In this document: piece by piece, positions 9,001 through 15,000 of the stretch | Position numbering within the stretch: the first letter of the stretch is position 1 | Layout of the letters: every line of letters begins with the position of its first letter | From: Fidelibacterota bacterium | Lineage (GTDB): Bacteria; Fidelibacterota; Marinisomatia; Marinisomatales; UBA2128 | DNA: 17,510 nt | Direction of reading: 5' to 3' | Assembly: GCA_046861645.1 (NCBI GenBank) | Contig: JBHHUM010000042.1 | Location: forward strand, 1-17,510 | Position numbers: made by a program

Positions 9001-12000
9001 TACTGCCATTACCTGTTCTTCCCATCCGAACATATCAGCAAATTCCTGGGGAAGGTTATGCAGTCGTCCATCCTCCCAGCGTAAAAGCTCAGAAAATCCG
9101 TGTCGGCCCATAAACTGCACATACGACTGTAGCGAATCAACTGGCATGACCGGCAGGCCGTAGGGAAGAAACACAATTAACCCTAGAATCACCAAGGAAA
9201 GGTACACTGGCATAATCCATTTCTTCACTGTTCCTTGGTAGAACCTTTCGAACACCACTGCACCCAATGCAAACAACATCGGATACGCCGGGAGCAGGTA
9301 GTAAGCCTTACCTCCAAATCTCAGCAGGACGAGAAGCGAAACCACATACAACCACCCTAAGACCCGAAATGTTCGGTCCTCTTTGTTGCGAAACGAATAC
9401 ACTAGCCCTACCAACCATATAGGTGCAGTGAACATATTCATCAAAATCTGCATGAATAAAAACCCTGCGGTTCCTACATTGACCAGCTGCGTCTCTGAAA
9501 GGGCTTCCATGTGCTGGAAGAACGGCCAGCCCATCCGATGCTGCCACACGAGGTTTGGAAAGAAAATCAGCAGTGCGATTCCTGCTGAGATCCACGGCCA
9601 TCGTGTTAATAAGACTTGACGTTTACGGGTAAATATTAGACCTACCAGAACACTGAATCCGAAAAGAAGCATCGTGTATTTGTTCAGTAGACCCAGTCCA
9701 CAAACAACACCAAACCATATCCATTGTTTCGGCTCGTTTGTTTTCAGTGCCCGAAGCAGCAACCAAGCACCCGCAACCCAGAAAGTCTGATTGAACCCAT
9801 CCGGTGTAAACAGAGTAGACACTCGAAGATATGCCACCGATACCAGCACGCAAAAAGCTGCAAGAAACTGGGCAAACCGGTTTCCACCTAGCTCCCTCGC
9901 AATCAATCCCGTGAAGATCACCATGGCTGCTCCAGCCAGAGCAGGAAACAGACGGACTGCAAATAGCGAACTACCAAAAAGAATTTCAGTCAGCCAGGCT
10001 ATGAGTGGGGTGAGAGGGGGTACTTCCAAGAATCCCCAGTCCATGTGTCTGCCTAGAGCCACGTAGAGGAACTCATCCCTGTGAAAACCATAGACTGTAT
10101 TGGTTAGAAAGTGAGCCAGGAGTTTTATTCCAGCAATAATTAAGATTATCTTCATACTGGTCAGGTAAACACGTCGTTCAACCATTATAGTTCTCCATCA
10201 AATCAGTGAACTGCCGGAACAGGTATCGTGAATCGTGCGGACCCGGCGCAGCCTCAGGATGGTACTGGACAGAAAAGGCTGGAATATCCCTGCACCGAAT
10301 CCCTTCAGAAGTAGCGTCGTTCAGATTCACATGCGTGGGAATCACACCATCGGGAAGAGTGTTCAAATCTACAGCGAAACCATGATTCTGACTCGTAATT
10401 TCTACCACTCCTGTTTCCAGATTCTTTACAGGATGATTAATCCCTCGATGCCCAAATTTAAGTTTATACGTTTGTGCTCCTAATGCCAGGGACAATATCT
10501 GGTGACCGAGACATATCCCAAAGATGGGTATTCTACCTAACAAGTTTTTTACCGTTGTAATGGCATAGGTAACGGCAGCTGGATCACCAGGTCCATTGGA
10601 AAGAAATATACCATCCGGATCCCCAGCGAGAATATCATCAGCAGTTGTAGAGGCCGGTAAGACTGTTACTGCACAACCGTGATCAGATAAAAGTCTAAGG
10701 ATATTCCACTTAATTCCGTAGTCGAGACAAACCACTTTAAAACGGGTTGCTGATTGGGGTATGTCAAATTCTTGCTTCTCTTTTCCAGCACCCCCGATCC
10801 ACTTATAGGGTAGTTTACAGGTAACCCGGGAGACTAGGTCCAAACCAGCCATGGAAGGAACCTTTTCCAACTTAGAGGTGAGAGAGTCTTTTTGAGCATC
10901 TTCTGTAGAAATAATGCCATTCATCGCCCCCTTATTACGAATATGCCTCGTAAGCGCCCGGGTGTCAATTCCCTGAATACCTGTTATTCCAGCCTCTCTC
11001 AGATAATCTCCCAGAGACTGTGTAGCTCGGTAACTCGAGGGGTGTACAGTCTCCTCCCTCACTACAAATCCTGCTACTTGAATTCGATTTGATTCTACAT
11101 CTTCAGGATTCACACCATAGTTTCCAATGTGGGGTGCTGTCATGGTAACAATCTGACCACAATAAGATGGGTCGGTTAGAATCTCCTGATAGCCGGTCAT
11201 ACCGGTGTTAAAACACACTTCACCAGTAGTTTCGCCTTCAGCACCCAAACTCCAACCATGAAATAGTCTTCCATCCTCCAATAACAATAATGCAGGTTTT
11301 CGATCCTTCATTTTGTCCCTACTGTCAGAGCCACAGTTCCCAGATTAAACCTCAGTGTATGGACATCTCTAAATCCCACATCACTCAGGAGATACCGCAT
11401 TTGAGCTGCAGAATGGAAGGCCTCTATAGTATCGATCAGATAGCGGTAAGCGGGCCACATCCGGTGCTGGATAAGACCACCCAGTGGAAGAACAAATAGA
11501 CGAAAATAGAGCCAGCTGACGATACGCATAATACTACTTTCCGGTCGGCAGAACTCCAGAAATCCAAGGCGCCCCCCAGTTTGCAGCACTCGCCTGATCT
11601 CACTCAATCCCTGGCGTAAATCAAACAGGTTTCTGCCTACGAAACCAGCTACAGCACCTGCGAAGGAATTATCACTGAAAGGTATATTCTCACCGTCAGC
11701 AATAGTAAGAGACAGCCACTCGGCATGTTCTCCTGCCTTTTGCCTCATTATTCCCAGCATTTCGAGGGAAAGATCAAGGGCAATTACGTCCACTTCAACT
11801 TGCCTTCTTACTTCTAAACCAAAATCTCCCGTGCCCGCGCCAAAATCAAGAATTCTATCTCCCGGCTTGAAATTCAACGCCTGCACTGATTTTCGGCGCC
11901 AGTGGATGTCTCGGCCCAAACTGAAAAGATGGTTCAGTAAATCATACCGAGGACCCACCTGTCGAAACATTTCCACCATGTCCTGCTTAGATTCTATAAA

Positions 12001-15000
12001 AAAAGAGCCCCGATAGTGGGGCTCTTTTTCTGAAGTACTTATCTTACTCAAGTTTAGAGAACCGTTCCTAACCAATACCCTAACGCCATCAGCAATCCGA
12101 CAGAAAAGTGTGTACCAATAGTGGAAACATTGACCAATAGTAGTTCGTAGGGTAATTTTTGTCGATCAGCATCATTCTCTACCCACCGTTGTAACCATTC
12201 GATTCCCATTTTCATAGCTTTTCTTGCCAATAGAAAGGGAAGCATGGCTATAAGGACCCAGGGAGTGGAAAAGTCCGCATTAACCGCACCGGCAACTCCA
12301 AGTCCCAGGATGAAAAGAAACGTTACATAGAGCGACGCTTTATATATGGCAAACGGCTTAGCGTAATTAGCAATTTCATCTCCTTCTGCTGTCCTGACTA
12401 CCCAGGTACGCTTACCTACTGCTCGGTCAGCACTGTAGTCTTGGAACCCATTGATAAAAAGGATCAACCCGACCATAATCGCCACGGGAATAGAAGCTAC
12501 CAGTACCGGGAAGAAATTCCACTCTGCTGCCGGCATGAGAGCCTGTTTCTGTACGTAGTGAGTACCGAGCGCCATCACGGGGCCAAAACCCAACATAACA
12601 GCAATATCGCCAAAACCGTGGTAACTGAGCCGCAGGGGAGCGCCCGTGTAAAAGATCCCCAAAGCAACGCCGGCGATGCCAAACCAAAGGAGCGGACTGA
12701 TGGCCAGTGGAGCGCCATGAAGTTGAGCATTCAGCTTCAAACCAACCGATATCGCTCCAGCAAACAACACTGCAGCCAGGATGAATACCTTACCCGGAGA
12801 CATGAGCCCTGCCTGAATCATACGTGAGCCCCCATTGAAGGGACTGAACAACTTATTGGACTCATCATTCCTCGTAACATGGTCGGAGTAGTCATTAGCT
12901 ACGTTAGTACCGGCATGGGCCAGAATAGCACCTAAAATCGTCCACCAGAAGAGACTCCAGTTGAAAGCACCAAAGTTGTAAAAGGCAACGGCAGCCCCTA
13001 AAATCACTGGAGCAATCGTTGCGGTGAAAAATGGGGCTCGAACTGCCCTTAAGTAGAGACCAATCTTCCGCAAAGTACCTTTTAAGATGGAAACAACCAA
13101 CGATTCCTGATTTTCTGGAAACTCTCGCCATTCAAACTGATTGTCAGCATAAAAATCCACATACTTAATGACTGTTGGCTTAAGCTTGTAATAACTGATC
13201 ACTTTATTTTTTTTCAGGAATTCGTCATCCATATAGGGTTTAAAAGCCTCCGTAACTTCCAATATCATTTTGTAAGCTTTTTCTACCTCTACTGGATCCT
13301 TTATCTGCTGTATCAGACCATCAATCTGTAACCCTTTGATTCCTTCAGTACCATCTGGACGAACCACGCATTGTACCCGGGGATTAACACGAGCCTGCTC
13401 GGCCTTACGGGTAGGATTGAAAGTAAAGAAGTAGATGTCAAAACCATCGTTGGCAAAAAATACATTCGCTGTTGAAGGATTTCCTCCCACTGAAGTACCC
13501 AAGGTAAGGAATTCAGCTTTATCTAACATCTCGAGAATCTTCTCGTCAAGACCTTTATTCATTTCACCTCCAAGACGTATTTCTTTAAATTACCGAAGGC
13601 AAATTTATGGTGTTGTCATGACTCACCCAAAGCCAAAATCGCTACAAAACGATGAATTATCGCAAGAAAATGAGGTGAACGTGTGAACTTTCTGGTACTT
13701 CACGGACCCAACCTGAACCTGATGGGTATTCGCTCTGCACAAATCGGCGAGCGGGTAACACTGGATAAAATCAACCGGGTACTACGACGACAAGCGCGTA
13801 CCCTGGAAGTATCCTTGAAGATCCTGCAGACTCACGACTCAGCAAGAGCCATCACCTTCTTGCATCGCAATCGGAACTGGGCAAATGGACTGCTCTTTGC
13901 TCCCGCTTCCTGGGCTCGCACTCAGTATGATGTACTTGATACATTGCAGCTCATCGGTATTCCCTTCGCTGAGATATTCCTTACCGAGGAGTTTGATCCT
14001 AACCAATACCAAGCTATCTCCATCTTTACGGGAATTGCCGTTGTCACCCTCAAGGGACCCCCTCTTAATATTTTTTCCGAGGCACTAACCAAACTGTATG
14101 AAGAAATCACTAAAGAATCCTCAAAAGGGCCGTAACCTTTATTTTCTGCTCCTCTCAGGGTTACTCTATATTATCTCTGGTTGTGCCCAACCGCCAGCAT
14201 CACAACCTGAAGAGCCTCCTCCACGAGAAGAACCGGAAAAAATAAAAGAACTCGAGTCAGTAGAAACAATCCAACCTGAGCCTACAATACCAAAAGTCTT
14301 AGAAACCGCTCCTGCACCAAAGCCTGAAGAAGTCATCCTTCCTCCGGTGATTATCCGGGACACCGTTCATGTAGAACACGTGATTTTCCCCGGTTCAGTA
14401 ACTTACCCGGATGACTTTTCCTATCTTAAAGACCTGAACCTTCTCTACCCCTGTACCGGGGTTCACATTCCGGACAAATCACGCCTCCTGCCCAACGCTC
14501 CCCGCAGCTATCGGCACGGCATCCATCGCGGGATTGATTTTATAGCCAACTATGGTAGTGAAGTCAGGGCTGTGGAGAGTGGCGTCGTCATCAGGGCTGA
14601 TCATCATTATGATGAGTTTGATCCTACTTTCCGGAAGGATTTGCTGGCGGAGGCCTCCACGATCGGGAGAACACCGTCAGATGTTTTTAATAACATTCTG
14701 GTGGGTCAAAGCGTCATAATCGATCACGGCACCGCCCTGGTGCCCGGTAAGCGGATAATTTCACTCTATGCCCATCTCTCCCAGATAGACAGTACTATCC
14801 AGGTAGGTAGTAAAGTAGATAAGGGTCAGCGTTTAGGACTTTCCGGAAACAGTGGTACGGAGCCAGCTACGGAGGGAAAAAGAGATGGCGCCCATCTTCA
14901 CTTTGAACTGATTATTCAAGATGCCCGGGGGGAAAGATACTTGGGTCAGGGACTGGCGCTGGAAGAGCTACGATCGGTGCTGAACAACCTGTTTACTGAG

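Follow-up and report, generated by a model that had tools for sequence, protein, structure and literature searches.

A split-barrel–prenyltransferase fusion next to menG in a Fidelibacterota bacterium and its possible role in the salvage of external naphthoquinones

The fusion gene and its surroundings

The window analysed here is a stretch of 17,510 nucleotides (positions 1 to 17,510, forward strand, of contig JBHHUM010000042.1, assembly GCA_046861645.1) from a Fidelibacterota bacterium, whose genome we label G000. On its reverse strand, at 12054..13562, lies a single open frame of 502 amino acids, without internal stops, that joins a PNPOx-like split barrel (residues 1–150, 13113..13562) to a UbiA-fold membrane prenyltransferase of the MenA/UBIAD1 branch (residues ~165–501, 12060..13070). 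A Shine-Dalgarno-like GGAGG, read directly from the sequence, stands on the same strand just 5' of the ATG (13567..13571). The neighbouring gene, also on the reverse strand, encodes a menG/ubiE-type C-methyltransferase (11308..12051) of 247 amino acids counted from a TTG, and its stop overlaps the start of carA. This TTG, at 12051, is the likely start, rather than 12075. The product passes the MenG/UbiE model TIGR01934 (170.9 against a cut-off of 158.35).

About 25–55 nt past the fusion stop is a terminator-like hairpin with a U-run (11998..12029, reverse strand; z = -4.18, 0/200 shuffles), which lies in the opening codons of menG if its longest frame is taken. A simple terminator scan did not flag it. 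The hairpin is kept in relatives, 3' of split-barrel and PAS forms alike.

Pfam places PNPOx_N (PF01243) on residues 5–96 of the fusion (30.2 bits, cut-off 28.1) and UbiA (PF01040) on residues 184–448 (80.9, cut-off 34.2). The AlphaFold model has a mean pLDDT of 92.2, and Foldseek put UBIAD1 (8djk) on top of its matches, followed by PNPOx-like barrels. Both domains are listed in 118 of the best 120 of 738 homologues, all of these 120 being at least 52% identical across at least 93% of the length, which argues that the fusion is not a chance join. The first-pass annotation had described a split barrel joined to a MenA/UBIAD1 prenyltransferase and adjoining menG, and these results confirm that description; its count of 155 homologues did not come out again in that form. 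A complex prediction for the fusion, a second barrel and FMN with MenG scored 0.00, which counts neither for nor against.

The prenyltransferase domain and the quinone genes of its hosts

The best family matches of the fusion are all MenA models, though each falls below its cut-off: 80.8 for TIGR00751 (cut-off 102.15) and 123.1 for NF004751 (cut-off 264). For comparison, a men-operon MenA from the same order scored 284.6. UBIAD1 is the top match of the prenyltransferase domain by sequence as well as by structure. The first Asp-rich motif is intact, with N223, D224, D227 and D233 invariant across 64 sequences. The second reads N-x-F-Q-D in all 43 barrel forms that match the pattern (54 were checked) and N-N-x-R-D in 21 of 22 men-operon MenA proteins, with Gln in the fusion where these have Arg. 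In a quick tree with a midpoint root the barrel forms make up one clade (54 rows, SH-aLRT 100), separate from the men-type clade of 21 rows. The sub-cut-off scores, the separate clade and the exchange of Arg for Gln suggest that the substrate of the fusion may differ from that of MenA.

G000 is a respiring bacterium with an assembly that is 94.47% complete. It has no match for menB, menD, MqnA/D or UbiD, and searches with the Men proteins of its relatives returned generic paralogues only, so the claim that this genome lacks men and mqn head-group genes is borne out. We surveyed 101 genomes of the order, 26 with an intact fusion and 75 without. Both menB and menD are absent from 25 of the 26 carriers, and menB is present in 28 of the 75 non-carriers, kin not being independent; the enrichment of the fusion where menB is missing, seen earlier in a smaller sample, is similar here. 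None of the 101 genomes has MqnA/D. UbiD occurs in five, no menB-less carrier (0/25) among them, and a ubiquinone or plastoquinone route was rejected on this ground. A menG match is found in 23 of the 26 carriers, the three without it including the single-contig genome G051. Each of five genomes tested has a match for a polyprenyl synthase (apparently frameshifted in G012) and an ACIII-type NrfD or cytochrome b. Three streamlined genomes of ~1 Mb (G051, G012 and G131, the last from Actinomarina) have no UbiA member apart from the fusion and heme o synthase (CtaB).

Genomes lacking both menB and the fusion had been put forward as a difficulty, and about half of that difficulty is now explained. 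Of the 47, 22 have a PAS-MenA fusion, 7 a stand-alone MenA-like gene and 1 a men-type menA where a contig ends; the other 17 are unexplained.

Comparison of loci suggests what the fusion does. Locus L105, in genome G141, reads tetR-menG-menI-fusion-geneX, and G092 has tetR-menG-menI-menF-menD-menB-menA-(sulfatase)-menC/E-geneX. The flanks are 68–83% identical, L105 is contiguous through the site where the men genes would stand, and neither menB nor menD scores over its cut-off in G141. G002 and G018 both have a full men operon, and in both the menG adjoining the fusion is a remnant; the G002 fusion has itself lost ~1 kb through two internal deletions. There is one example of the swap and one of the decay. 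Intact fusions stand alongside men genes in G018 and G134. The TetR that heads men operons in eight loci (40–48% identity) is also found 5' of the fusion in genus g15, and most fusion loci have no accompanying transporter. The swap at L105, the decay in G002 and the three genomes with no other non-CtaB UbiA member support the view that the fusion belongs to menaquinone-type synthesis, where it takes the place of the men genes for the head group.

Beyond the order, Actinomarina carriers lack menB (0/33) and MqnA/D (0/8), and G131 has no match to MenF or TrpE. A UbiE-like gene lies directly 3' of the fusion in 33 of 33; the Actinomarina neighbour scored 136.7, below the TIGR01934 cut-off of 158.35. 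Of 39 other carriers, 11 have MqnA/D over cut-off, and the fusion is therefore not confined to lineages without a head-group pathway, as had been proposed. Four of five tested carriers with futalosine genes have their own MqnP-type prenyltransferase, and we rejected the fusion as the futalosine prenyltransferase of Calditrichota. Adjacency to menG, first reported for 6 of 10 loci, is less general: it holds in 41 of 80 GTDB loci, 33 of them from Actinomarina and 8 from the 47 others. The fused clade has seemingly moved between phyla.

The split barrel, its PAS counterpart and competing explanations

T47, R52, K53, Q56 and N60 of the barrel are invariant in 44 homologues, and conservation of the barrel (0.72) is no lower than that of the catalytic domain (0.67). 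T47 and K53 align to the Thr and Lys of GS26 and Rv2991 and to the Lys of Lin2891; we take them to be flavin-phosphate-binding residues. Structure comparison gave VIA at Z 18.0 (rmsd 2.4 Å, 141 aligned). The top neighbours include CREG and heme-binding proteins, and heme-binding barrels tie for the top score. The ESM Atlas returned generic PNPOx_N clusters only. F420 was rejected as a general cofactor of the barrel, as cofE is found in one of five genomes (Actinomarina, not G000), and so was an Rv1155-type F420-dependent oxidoreductase, the fusion scoring 21.2 against the TIGR03618 cut-off of 79.05.

If the fusion does work in salvage, the barrel may dimerise, bind FMN or FAD and act as a quinone reductase, a prediction to which we give a little less than an even chance. 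The idea is weakened by the loss of the conserved lysine in five of eight distant fusions and by the unrelated PAS domain that replaces the barrel in 22 menB-less genomes, and it is disfavoured by the heme-binding barrels among the nearest structures. These same observations favour a barrel that is not an enzyme, in which salvage is unchanged and the domain serves in dimerisation or in capturing or sensing a ligand (the ring precursor, flavin redox state or heme) and can be swapped with PAS. The PAS-MenA fusion is present in 22 of the 101 genomes, with menB in none of the 22 and never together with the barrel form. In G020, G047, G056 and G063 it occupies the same carA site, with the same hairpin behind three. 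We see a non-enzymatic barrel as possible but clearly the minority view: the lysine motif is kept in 119 of the closest 120 of 738 homologues, and a sister relation of the barrel and PAS clades is not shown by the quick tree (SH-aLRT 92). The two forms also differ in menG, found in 23 of 26 barrel carriers against 4 of 22 PAS genomes, which suggests different chemistry rather than a simple exchange. CADD, a neighbour of PAS-MenA, was rejected as a candidate, since in G000 it is on another contig, heading an aromatic amino acid operon.

Other explanations concern the ring itself. It could be synthesised internally by a third, so far undescribed pathway, the barrel performing one step as PhzG does for phenazines, and we judge this unlikely. 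In its favour, dilute seawater would be a poor source of ring precursors, and a 2026 survey of 26,264 genomes (PMC13386864) reports, in the part drawn on here, many lineages without a known quinone pathway, leaves the reason open and suggests an alternative menaquinone pathway. Chorismate synthase (aroC) is present in 12 of the 26 carriers, which also fits such a route; against it, aroC is unmatched in 14, all seven of genus g15 among them, and HPPD is missing from 24 of 26. NuoA is present in five of five tested carriers without an aroC match, and assembly gaps can hide aroC, as G018 has a full men operon yet no match. At L105 a single gene takes the place of the whole men block, which also speaks against a third route. 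Weak tests point the same way: no ring-forming candidate was found among 113 G131 proteins at least 44% identical to G000 (11 scanned, the rest judged by their N-termini), and no co-transferred ring-forming genes when the 1.01-Mb contig of G131 was compared with G000 and with 577 of 970 kb of G051. Less probable again is a substrate other than naphthoquinone, for example homogentisate, giving a benzoquinone similar to plastoquinone, or a flavin-like ring that the barrel holds. The sub-cut-off MenA scores, altered second motif and separate clade would fit, as would the retention of the fusion in Calditrichota whose futalosine set is complete. A further point bears on the PAS form alone: HPPD is present in 15 of its 22 genomes, and three of the four with menG lack it. 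Homogentisate was rejected as substrate of the barrel form because just two of 26 carriers have HPPD, which in G000 presumably belongs to tyrosine catabolism, judging by its neighbours. The link of the fusion to menG, menI and the men TetR, the MenA models as best family matches and UBIAD1 as best structure all argue against another substrate. That the fusion is an ordinary MenA, with men genes merely missing from incomplete assemblies, is very improbable and already disfavoured. Assemblies do vary in completeness, and the men genes of G034 are cut at a contig end, but menB is absent from 19 of 20 carriers of at least 90% completeness, from single-contig G051 and from all 33 Actinomarina, and L105 is unbroken.

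A salvage proposal and its relation to known systems

We favour salvage prenylation of an external naphthoquinone as the function of the fusion, at a probability of roughly 0.6; substrate, product and uptake are what we infer, whereas the domain anatomy, the intact first Asp-rich motif, the failure to find known head-group genes, the presence of a tail synthase and of complexes that use quinones, and the swap with the men genes are observed. The men-type TetR in genus g15, the absence of menB from Actinomarina carriers and the 14 carriers without an aroC match count in favour as well. The cell would build no naphthoquinone ring and would instead use a two-gene salvage route to menaquinone. An external ring (DHNA, its oxidised or decarboxylated forms, or menadione) would enter the cell, the UbiA domain would attach a polyprenyl tail and MenG would methylate C2. 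The barrel might keep the ring reduced, as prenylation needs, or reduce demethylmenaquinone for MenG in the manner of NDC1. In Calditrichota with a complete futalosine pathway the fusion would provide scavenging as an additional route. The hairpin between the fusion and menG in G000 counts against two-gene salvage, as do the three carriers without a menG match, the futalosine genes of 11 of 39 other carriers, the intact fusions alongside men genes in G018 and G134 and the want of an accompanying transporter at most loci. Of the interpretation first put forward, the menaquinone role and the replacement of men genes are supported, the wording about lineages is not, and the reductase stays a prediction.

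More tentatively, a one-protein barrel-reductase/prenyltransferase module may have spread horizontally, making Actinomarina, streamlined Marinimicrobia and marine Chloroflexota auxotrophs for vitamin K precursors that rebuild menaquinone from oxidised naphthoquinones in seawater, with the PAS sister form turned to homogentisate or a ring methylated beforehand. Bolder still, the barrel may itself form the ring, starting from a non-canonical precursor, which would amount to a third menaquinone route.

In several abundant ocean bacteria, most of them uncultured, the genes that make the ring of vitamin K2 appear to have been lost and a single fused enzyme to have been retained, which probably joins the lipid tail to an externally acquired ring. 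The loss of the ring genes with retention of the tail enzyme suggests a missing growth factor for these bacteria, and DHNA or menadione is the predicted cheap medium additive for such hard-to-culture groups. For several marine groups that are very abundant and have respiratory chains, the fusion offers a concrete answer to the question left by the 2026 survey, and it suggests that quinones are cross-fed in the open ocean. Caldithrix abyssi DSM 13497, a cultured carrier, is open to direct biochemistry. Our literature search found no report of the fusion, and a term search of parts of PMC5317091, PMC12008989 and PMC8303990 gave nothing relevant to it; these genomes may be among those entered without a pathway in the genome table of PMC13386864.

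The barrel has the fold of GS26 (3ec6), Lin2891 (3db0), Npun_R6570 (2i02), Mll6688 (2hq9) and MSMEG_6519 (5bnc), with Z 15–18 and rmsd 2.3–2.9 Å, and shares their T-x-x-x-x-x-K stretch, at only 16–24% identity. The ligands of this PNPOx-like group are FMN, FAD, F420 or heme, and no matched chain carries a fused prenyltransferase. With MenA (TIGR00751, PRK06080) the fusion has in common the UbiA fold, the first Asp-rich motif, a G-K-x-T motif and the link to menG. It differs in its N-terminal split barrel, N-x-F-Q-D motif and separate clade, and mostly occurs without men head-group genes. UBIAD1, the animal MK-4 synthase, is likewise a salvage enzyme and, from the portion of PMC4398444 used here, prenylates menadione only once this is reduced. 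The matched UBIAD1 chain (8djk, 301 aa) lacks a fused barrel, and the enzyme takes a ring already methylated, whereas fusion carriers usually retain menG. NDC1 is a possible analogy for the barrel: the relevant part of PMC8133638 describes a plant flavoprotein that reduces the prenylated, unmethylated quinone ahead of MenG, although it has an unrelated fold (type II NAD(P)H dehydrogenase), is a separate gene and belongs to a full de novo pathway.

The closest genotype is that of DHNA salvage in Porphyromonas pasteri, some P. gingivalis, Tannerella and gut quinone auxotrophs, which have lost menFDBCE and kept the last two genes (passages of PMC9704088 and PMC5738691); P. pasteri, with only menA and ubiE, requires DHNA (PMC9704088). 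G000 and 25 of the 26 carriers in the order share this pattern, head-group genes not being found. In the Porphyromonas type, however, menA and ubiE are described as scattered single genes of host-associated anaerobes, those passages mentioning no fused domain, while the fusion is a distinct clade of mostly marine bacteria with respiratory chains. Salvage with menA and menG alone is already known from oral and gut bacteria.

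The fusion and its relatives

The fusion gene (12054-13562, minus strand) is a single 502-codon frame with a ribosome-binding site, and its product passes the Pfam cut-offs for PNPOx_N (residues 5-96) and UbiA (residues 184-448). The predicted model has a pLDDT of 92.2, and Foldseek ranks UBIAD1 first, with PNPOx-like barrels next. By score and fold the N-terminal domain belongs to the PNPOx-like split barrels. Conservation is 0.72 in the barrel, 0.67 in the catalytic domain and 0.44 in the linker, so the barrel is conserved no less than the catalytic part. The UbiA domain does not reach the curated MenA cut-offs, its second motif fails the MenA test and it also fails the clade test on a quick tree, so we have not filed the fusion as MenA proper, although it probably works as MenA/UBIAD1 do.

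Both domains are listed in 118 of the best 120 among 738 database matches. Record labels span Marinimicrobia, Actinomarina, Dehalococcoidia, Anaerolineales, Calditrichota, KSB1, Bacteroidota/Chlorobiota and Arenicellales, and Caldithrix abyssi is a cultured carrier. The records labelled Arenicellales form the P0028 cluster (67% identity); Arenicellales are ubiquinone producers. More divergent barrel-UbiA fusions (P0266, P0336, P0289, P0342, P0265, P0301, P0383 and P0412, five without the barrel lysine) include a Hodarchaeales record in the P0266 cluster. The literature searched, with most subscription papers outside its coverage, gave no account of this fusion or of a second one, PAS-MenA, which carries a PAS domain instead of the barrel. 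The barrel fusion is real, widespread and apparently undescribed.

A quick tree was built from 121 UbiA domains; it omits sequences shorter than 250 aa, 23 loci that are duplicates or nearly so, and 28 of the 33 loci from Actinomarina. Barrel forms make one clade in it (54 rows, SH-aLRT 100) and PAS forms another (21 rows, SH-aLRT 95). The two are separate, both lie outside men-operon MenA, and the tree does not show them to be sisters. Sequences from Actinomarina and those labelled Chloroflexota are nested within other phyla, a sign of possible horizontal transfer on this midpoint-rooted tree, whose bin labels may be wrong.

The gene downstream of the fusion passes the MenG/UbiE cut-off. A terminator-like hairpin (11998-12029, z = -4.18) lies just after the fusion stop, so co-transcription of fusion and menG is uncertain in the window. 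The hairpin is kept behind both barrel and PAS forms, and in several genera the longest menG frame also takes its first codons from it; it may be an attenuator, or menG may in truth start behind it. The adjacency to menG first reported for 6 of 10 loci holds in 41 of 80 GTDB loci overall; with Actinomarina set aside, only 8 of 47 show it. In Actinomarina loci such as L145 (from 7507 on), the fusion and the methyltransferase gene are arranged tail to tail with genes for a thioredoxin-like protein, for DsbB, which requires quinone, and for a rhodopsin. Unusually similar between Actinomarina and the window's own genome are a beta-eliminating lyase (L265:14940-16319, 56%) and an unannotated 347-aa protein (L265:5608-6648, 47%).

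Distribution against the head-group genes

One draw of 101 genomes from the order, kin included and counts therefore not independent, held the intact barrel fusion in 26; the fusion is split across two contigs in G072 and broken in G002. menB occurs in 29 of the 101, in 1 of 26 intact carriers against 28 of 75 non-carriers, which bears out, within a sample containing kin, the enrichment where menB is absent proposed by the first-pass annotation. menD gave the same result among the carriers, MqnA/D matched in none of the 101, and menG matched in 23 of the 26 carriers and not in three. menB is missing from every one of the 33 carriers labelled Actinomarina, in each of which a UbiE-like gene comes directly after the fusion, and MqnA/D was absent from the eight tested. 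The further claim that the fusion belongs to lineages without a head-group pathway is contradicted by the 39 GTDB-locus carriers: MqnA/D passes its cut-off in 11 (nine with Calditrichota or Caldisericaceae labels, two with Bacteroidota/Chlorobiota), one of these also has menB, and four of five tested have their own MqnP-type enzyme. The fusion therefore also lives beside complete pathways.

There is good comparative evidence that the fusion replaces menaquinone head-group genes. Locus L105 reads tetR-menG-menI-fusion-geneX, and genome G092 reads tetR-menG-menI-menF-menD-menB-menA-(sulfatase)-menC/E-geneX; the flanking proteins of the two are 68-83% identical, and neither menB nor menD reaches its cut-off in the L105 genome. 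A TetR of one family stands at the head of men operons in eight loci and, in genus g15, ahead of the fusion. Both G002 and G018 keep a complete men operon at another site, with only a remnant of menG left beside the fusion; in G002 the fusion itself has lost about 1 kb in two internal deletions. The in-place swap and the decay in G002 are one case each. In three genomes of about 1 Mb (G051, G012 and Actinomarina G131) the fusion is the sole UbiA besides heme o synthase.

The window's own genome (G000, completeness 94.47%) has no match to menB, menD, MqnA/D or UbiD, and relatives' Men proteins found only paralogues there, such as TrpE and acyl-CoA ligases. It holds complex I subunits, ACIII-type NrfD, cytochrome b and polyprenyl synthases; respiration through complex I, ACIII and cytochrome b requires quinone, so the genome needs one. 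Besides the fusion it has four proteins of the UbiA family: two that resemble heme o synthase, encoded in an oxidase cluster, one DGGGP-synthase-like (L003:1408-2229) and an unassigned one of 347 aa (L005:1336-2376); a 655-aa gene (L001:355-2322) looks like a fusion of heme A synthase and heme o synthase. At 1150-2771 the window also encodes a multiheme cytochrome c and, after it, a protein of the carboxymuconolactone-decarboxylase family whose tail is rich in Cys. A second type II dehydroquinase (13683-14135), degenerate and below cut-offs, is altered relative to the copy on contig C159 at Tyr, Asn and His, which we take to be catalytic; it is a possible pseudo-enzyme, which several relatives also retain next to the fusion site.

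PAS-MenA and stand-alone MenA-like genes

The first-pass annotation had counted genomes lacking both menB and the fusion as a difficulty. Of 47 such genomes, 22 have PAS-MenA, seven a stand-alone MenA-like gene and one a men-type menA at a contig end, which lessens it; the difficulty stands for the other 17, many of them incomplete. The PAS domain of PAS-MenA (for example L096:6099-7364) is joined to a related MenA-like domain, and Cys11, Trp57 and Cys101 are invariant. None of the 22 genomes has menB, menD or the barrel form, and four have menG. PAS-MenA occupies the window's carA site in G020, G047, G056 and G063, followed in G047 by a menG with an internal deletion. HPPD is present in 15 of the 22 and absent from three of the four with menG, a lineage-confounded lead that PAS-MenA may use menadiol or homogentisate. 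A CADD-family gene lies directly behind PAS-MenA in six loci (L039-L042, L096, L097), and another heads the aromatic amino acid operon of G000 (C159:1091-1945).

G015, G026 and G053 share a cassette of men-type TetR, NMT1-like binding protein, ABC ATPase, permease, stand-alone MenA-like gene and TonB receptor (L060:2565-8956, L052:2655-9049 and L061:1-5340, the last not reaching TetR). In G053 the barrel fusion comes directly after it, and a TonB receptor 46% identical to the cassette's precedes the G092 men operon. The cassette is a candidate importer of some quinone precursor.

Source of the ring and role of the barrel

Chorismate synthase has no match in 14 of the 26 carriers, including all seven of g15 and both of genus g4. 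Chorismate is the start of both known menaquinone pathways, so these 14 could use neither; G018, with men genes present and no aroC match, is a caveat on this absence. NuoA was found in all five chorismate-synthase-less carriers tested. Homogentisate as the substrate of the barrel form is argued against by HPPD in only 2 of 26 carriers. G131 has aroC and no match to MenF/TrpE-like, MenD, MenC, UbiD or HPPD, and a search for ring-forming genes co-transferred between G131 and G000 gave no candidate, a weak test that scanned 11 of 113 shared proteins. Salvage of an external naphthoquinone seems the best reading of the fusion, with a probability of about 0.6.

T47, R52, K53, Q56 and N60 of the barrel do not vary among 44 homologues, and GS26, Lin2891 and Mll6688, the last an FAD binder, align with them; K53 presumably binds flavin phosphate. 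Heme-binding barrels, GS26 and CREG tie as structural neighbours (Z 16.5-18), so the fold does not fix the ligand. F420 is an unlikely cofactor in G000, with cofE in one of five genomes. Against a reductase stand the lysine's absence from five of eight distant fusions and the fact that PAS, normally a sensor, can take the barrel's place. menG accompanies 23 of 26 barrel forms versus 4 of 22 PAS forms, a pairing that would fit reduction for MenG, although lineage confounds it.

Known systems offer partial parallels. UBIAD1 prenylates menadione only after its reduction (PMC4398444), and in plants a reduction step comes before MenG (PMC8133638), so a reductase role is chemically sensible and, by these analogies, plausible for the fused barrel. 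A 2026 survey describes many lineages without a quinone pathway (PMC13386864). Salvage on menA and ubiE alone is suggested for gut bacteria, for which no transporter was known (PMC5738691). In Porphyromonas such salvage is documented (PMC9704088), and most fusion carriers of the order have likewise kept the late genes.
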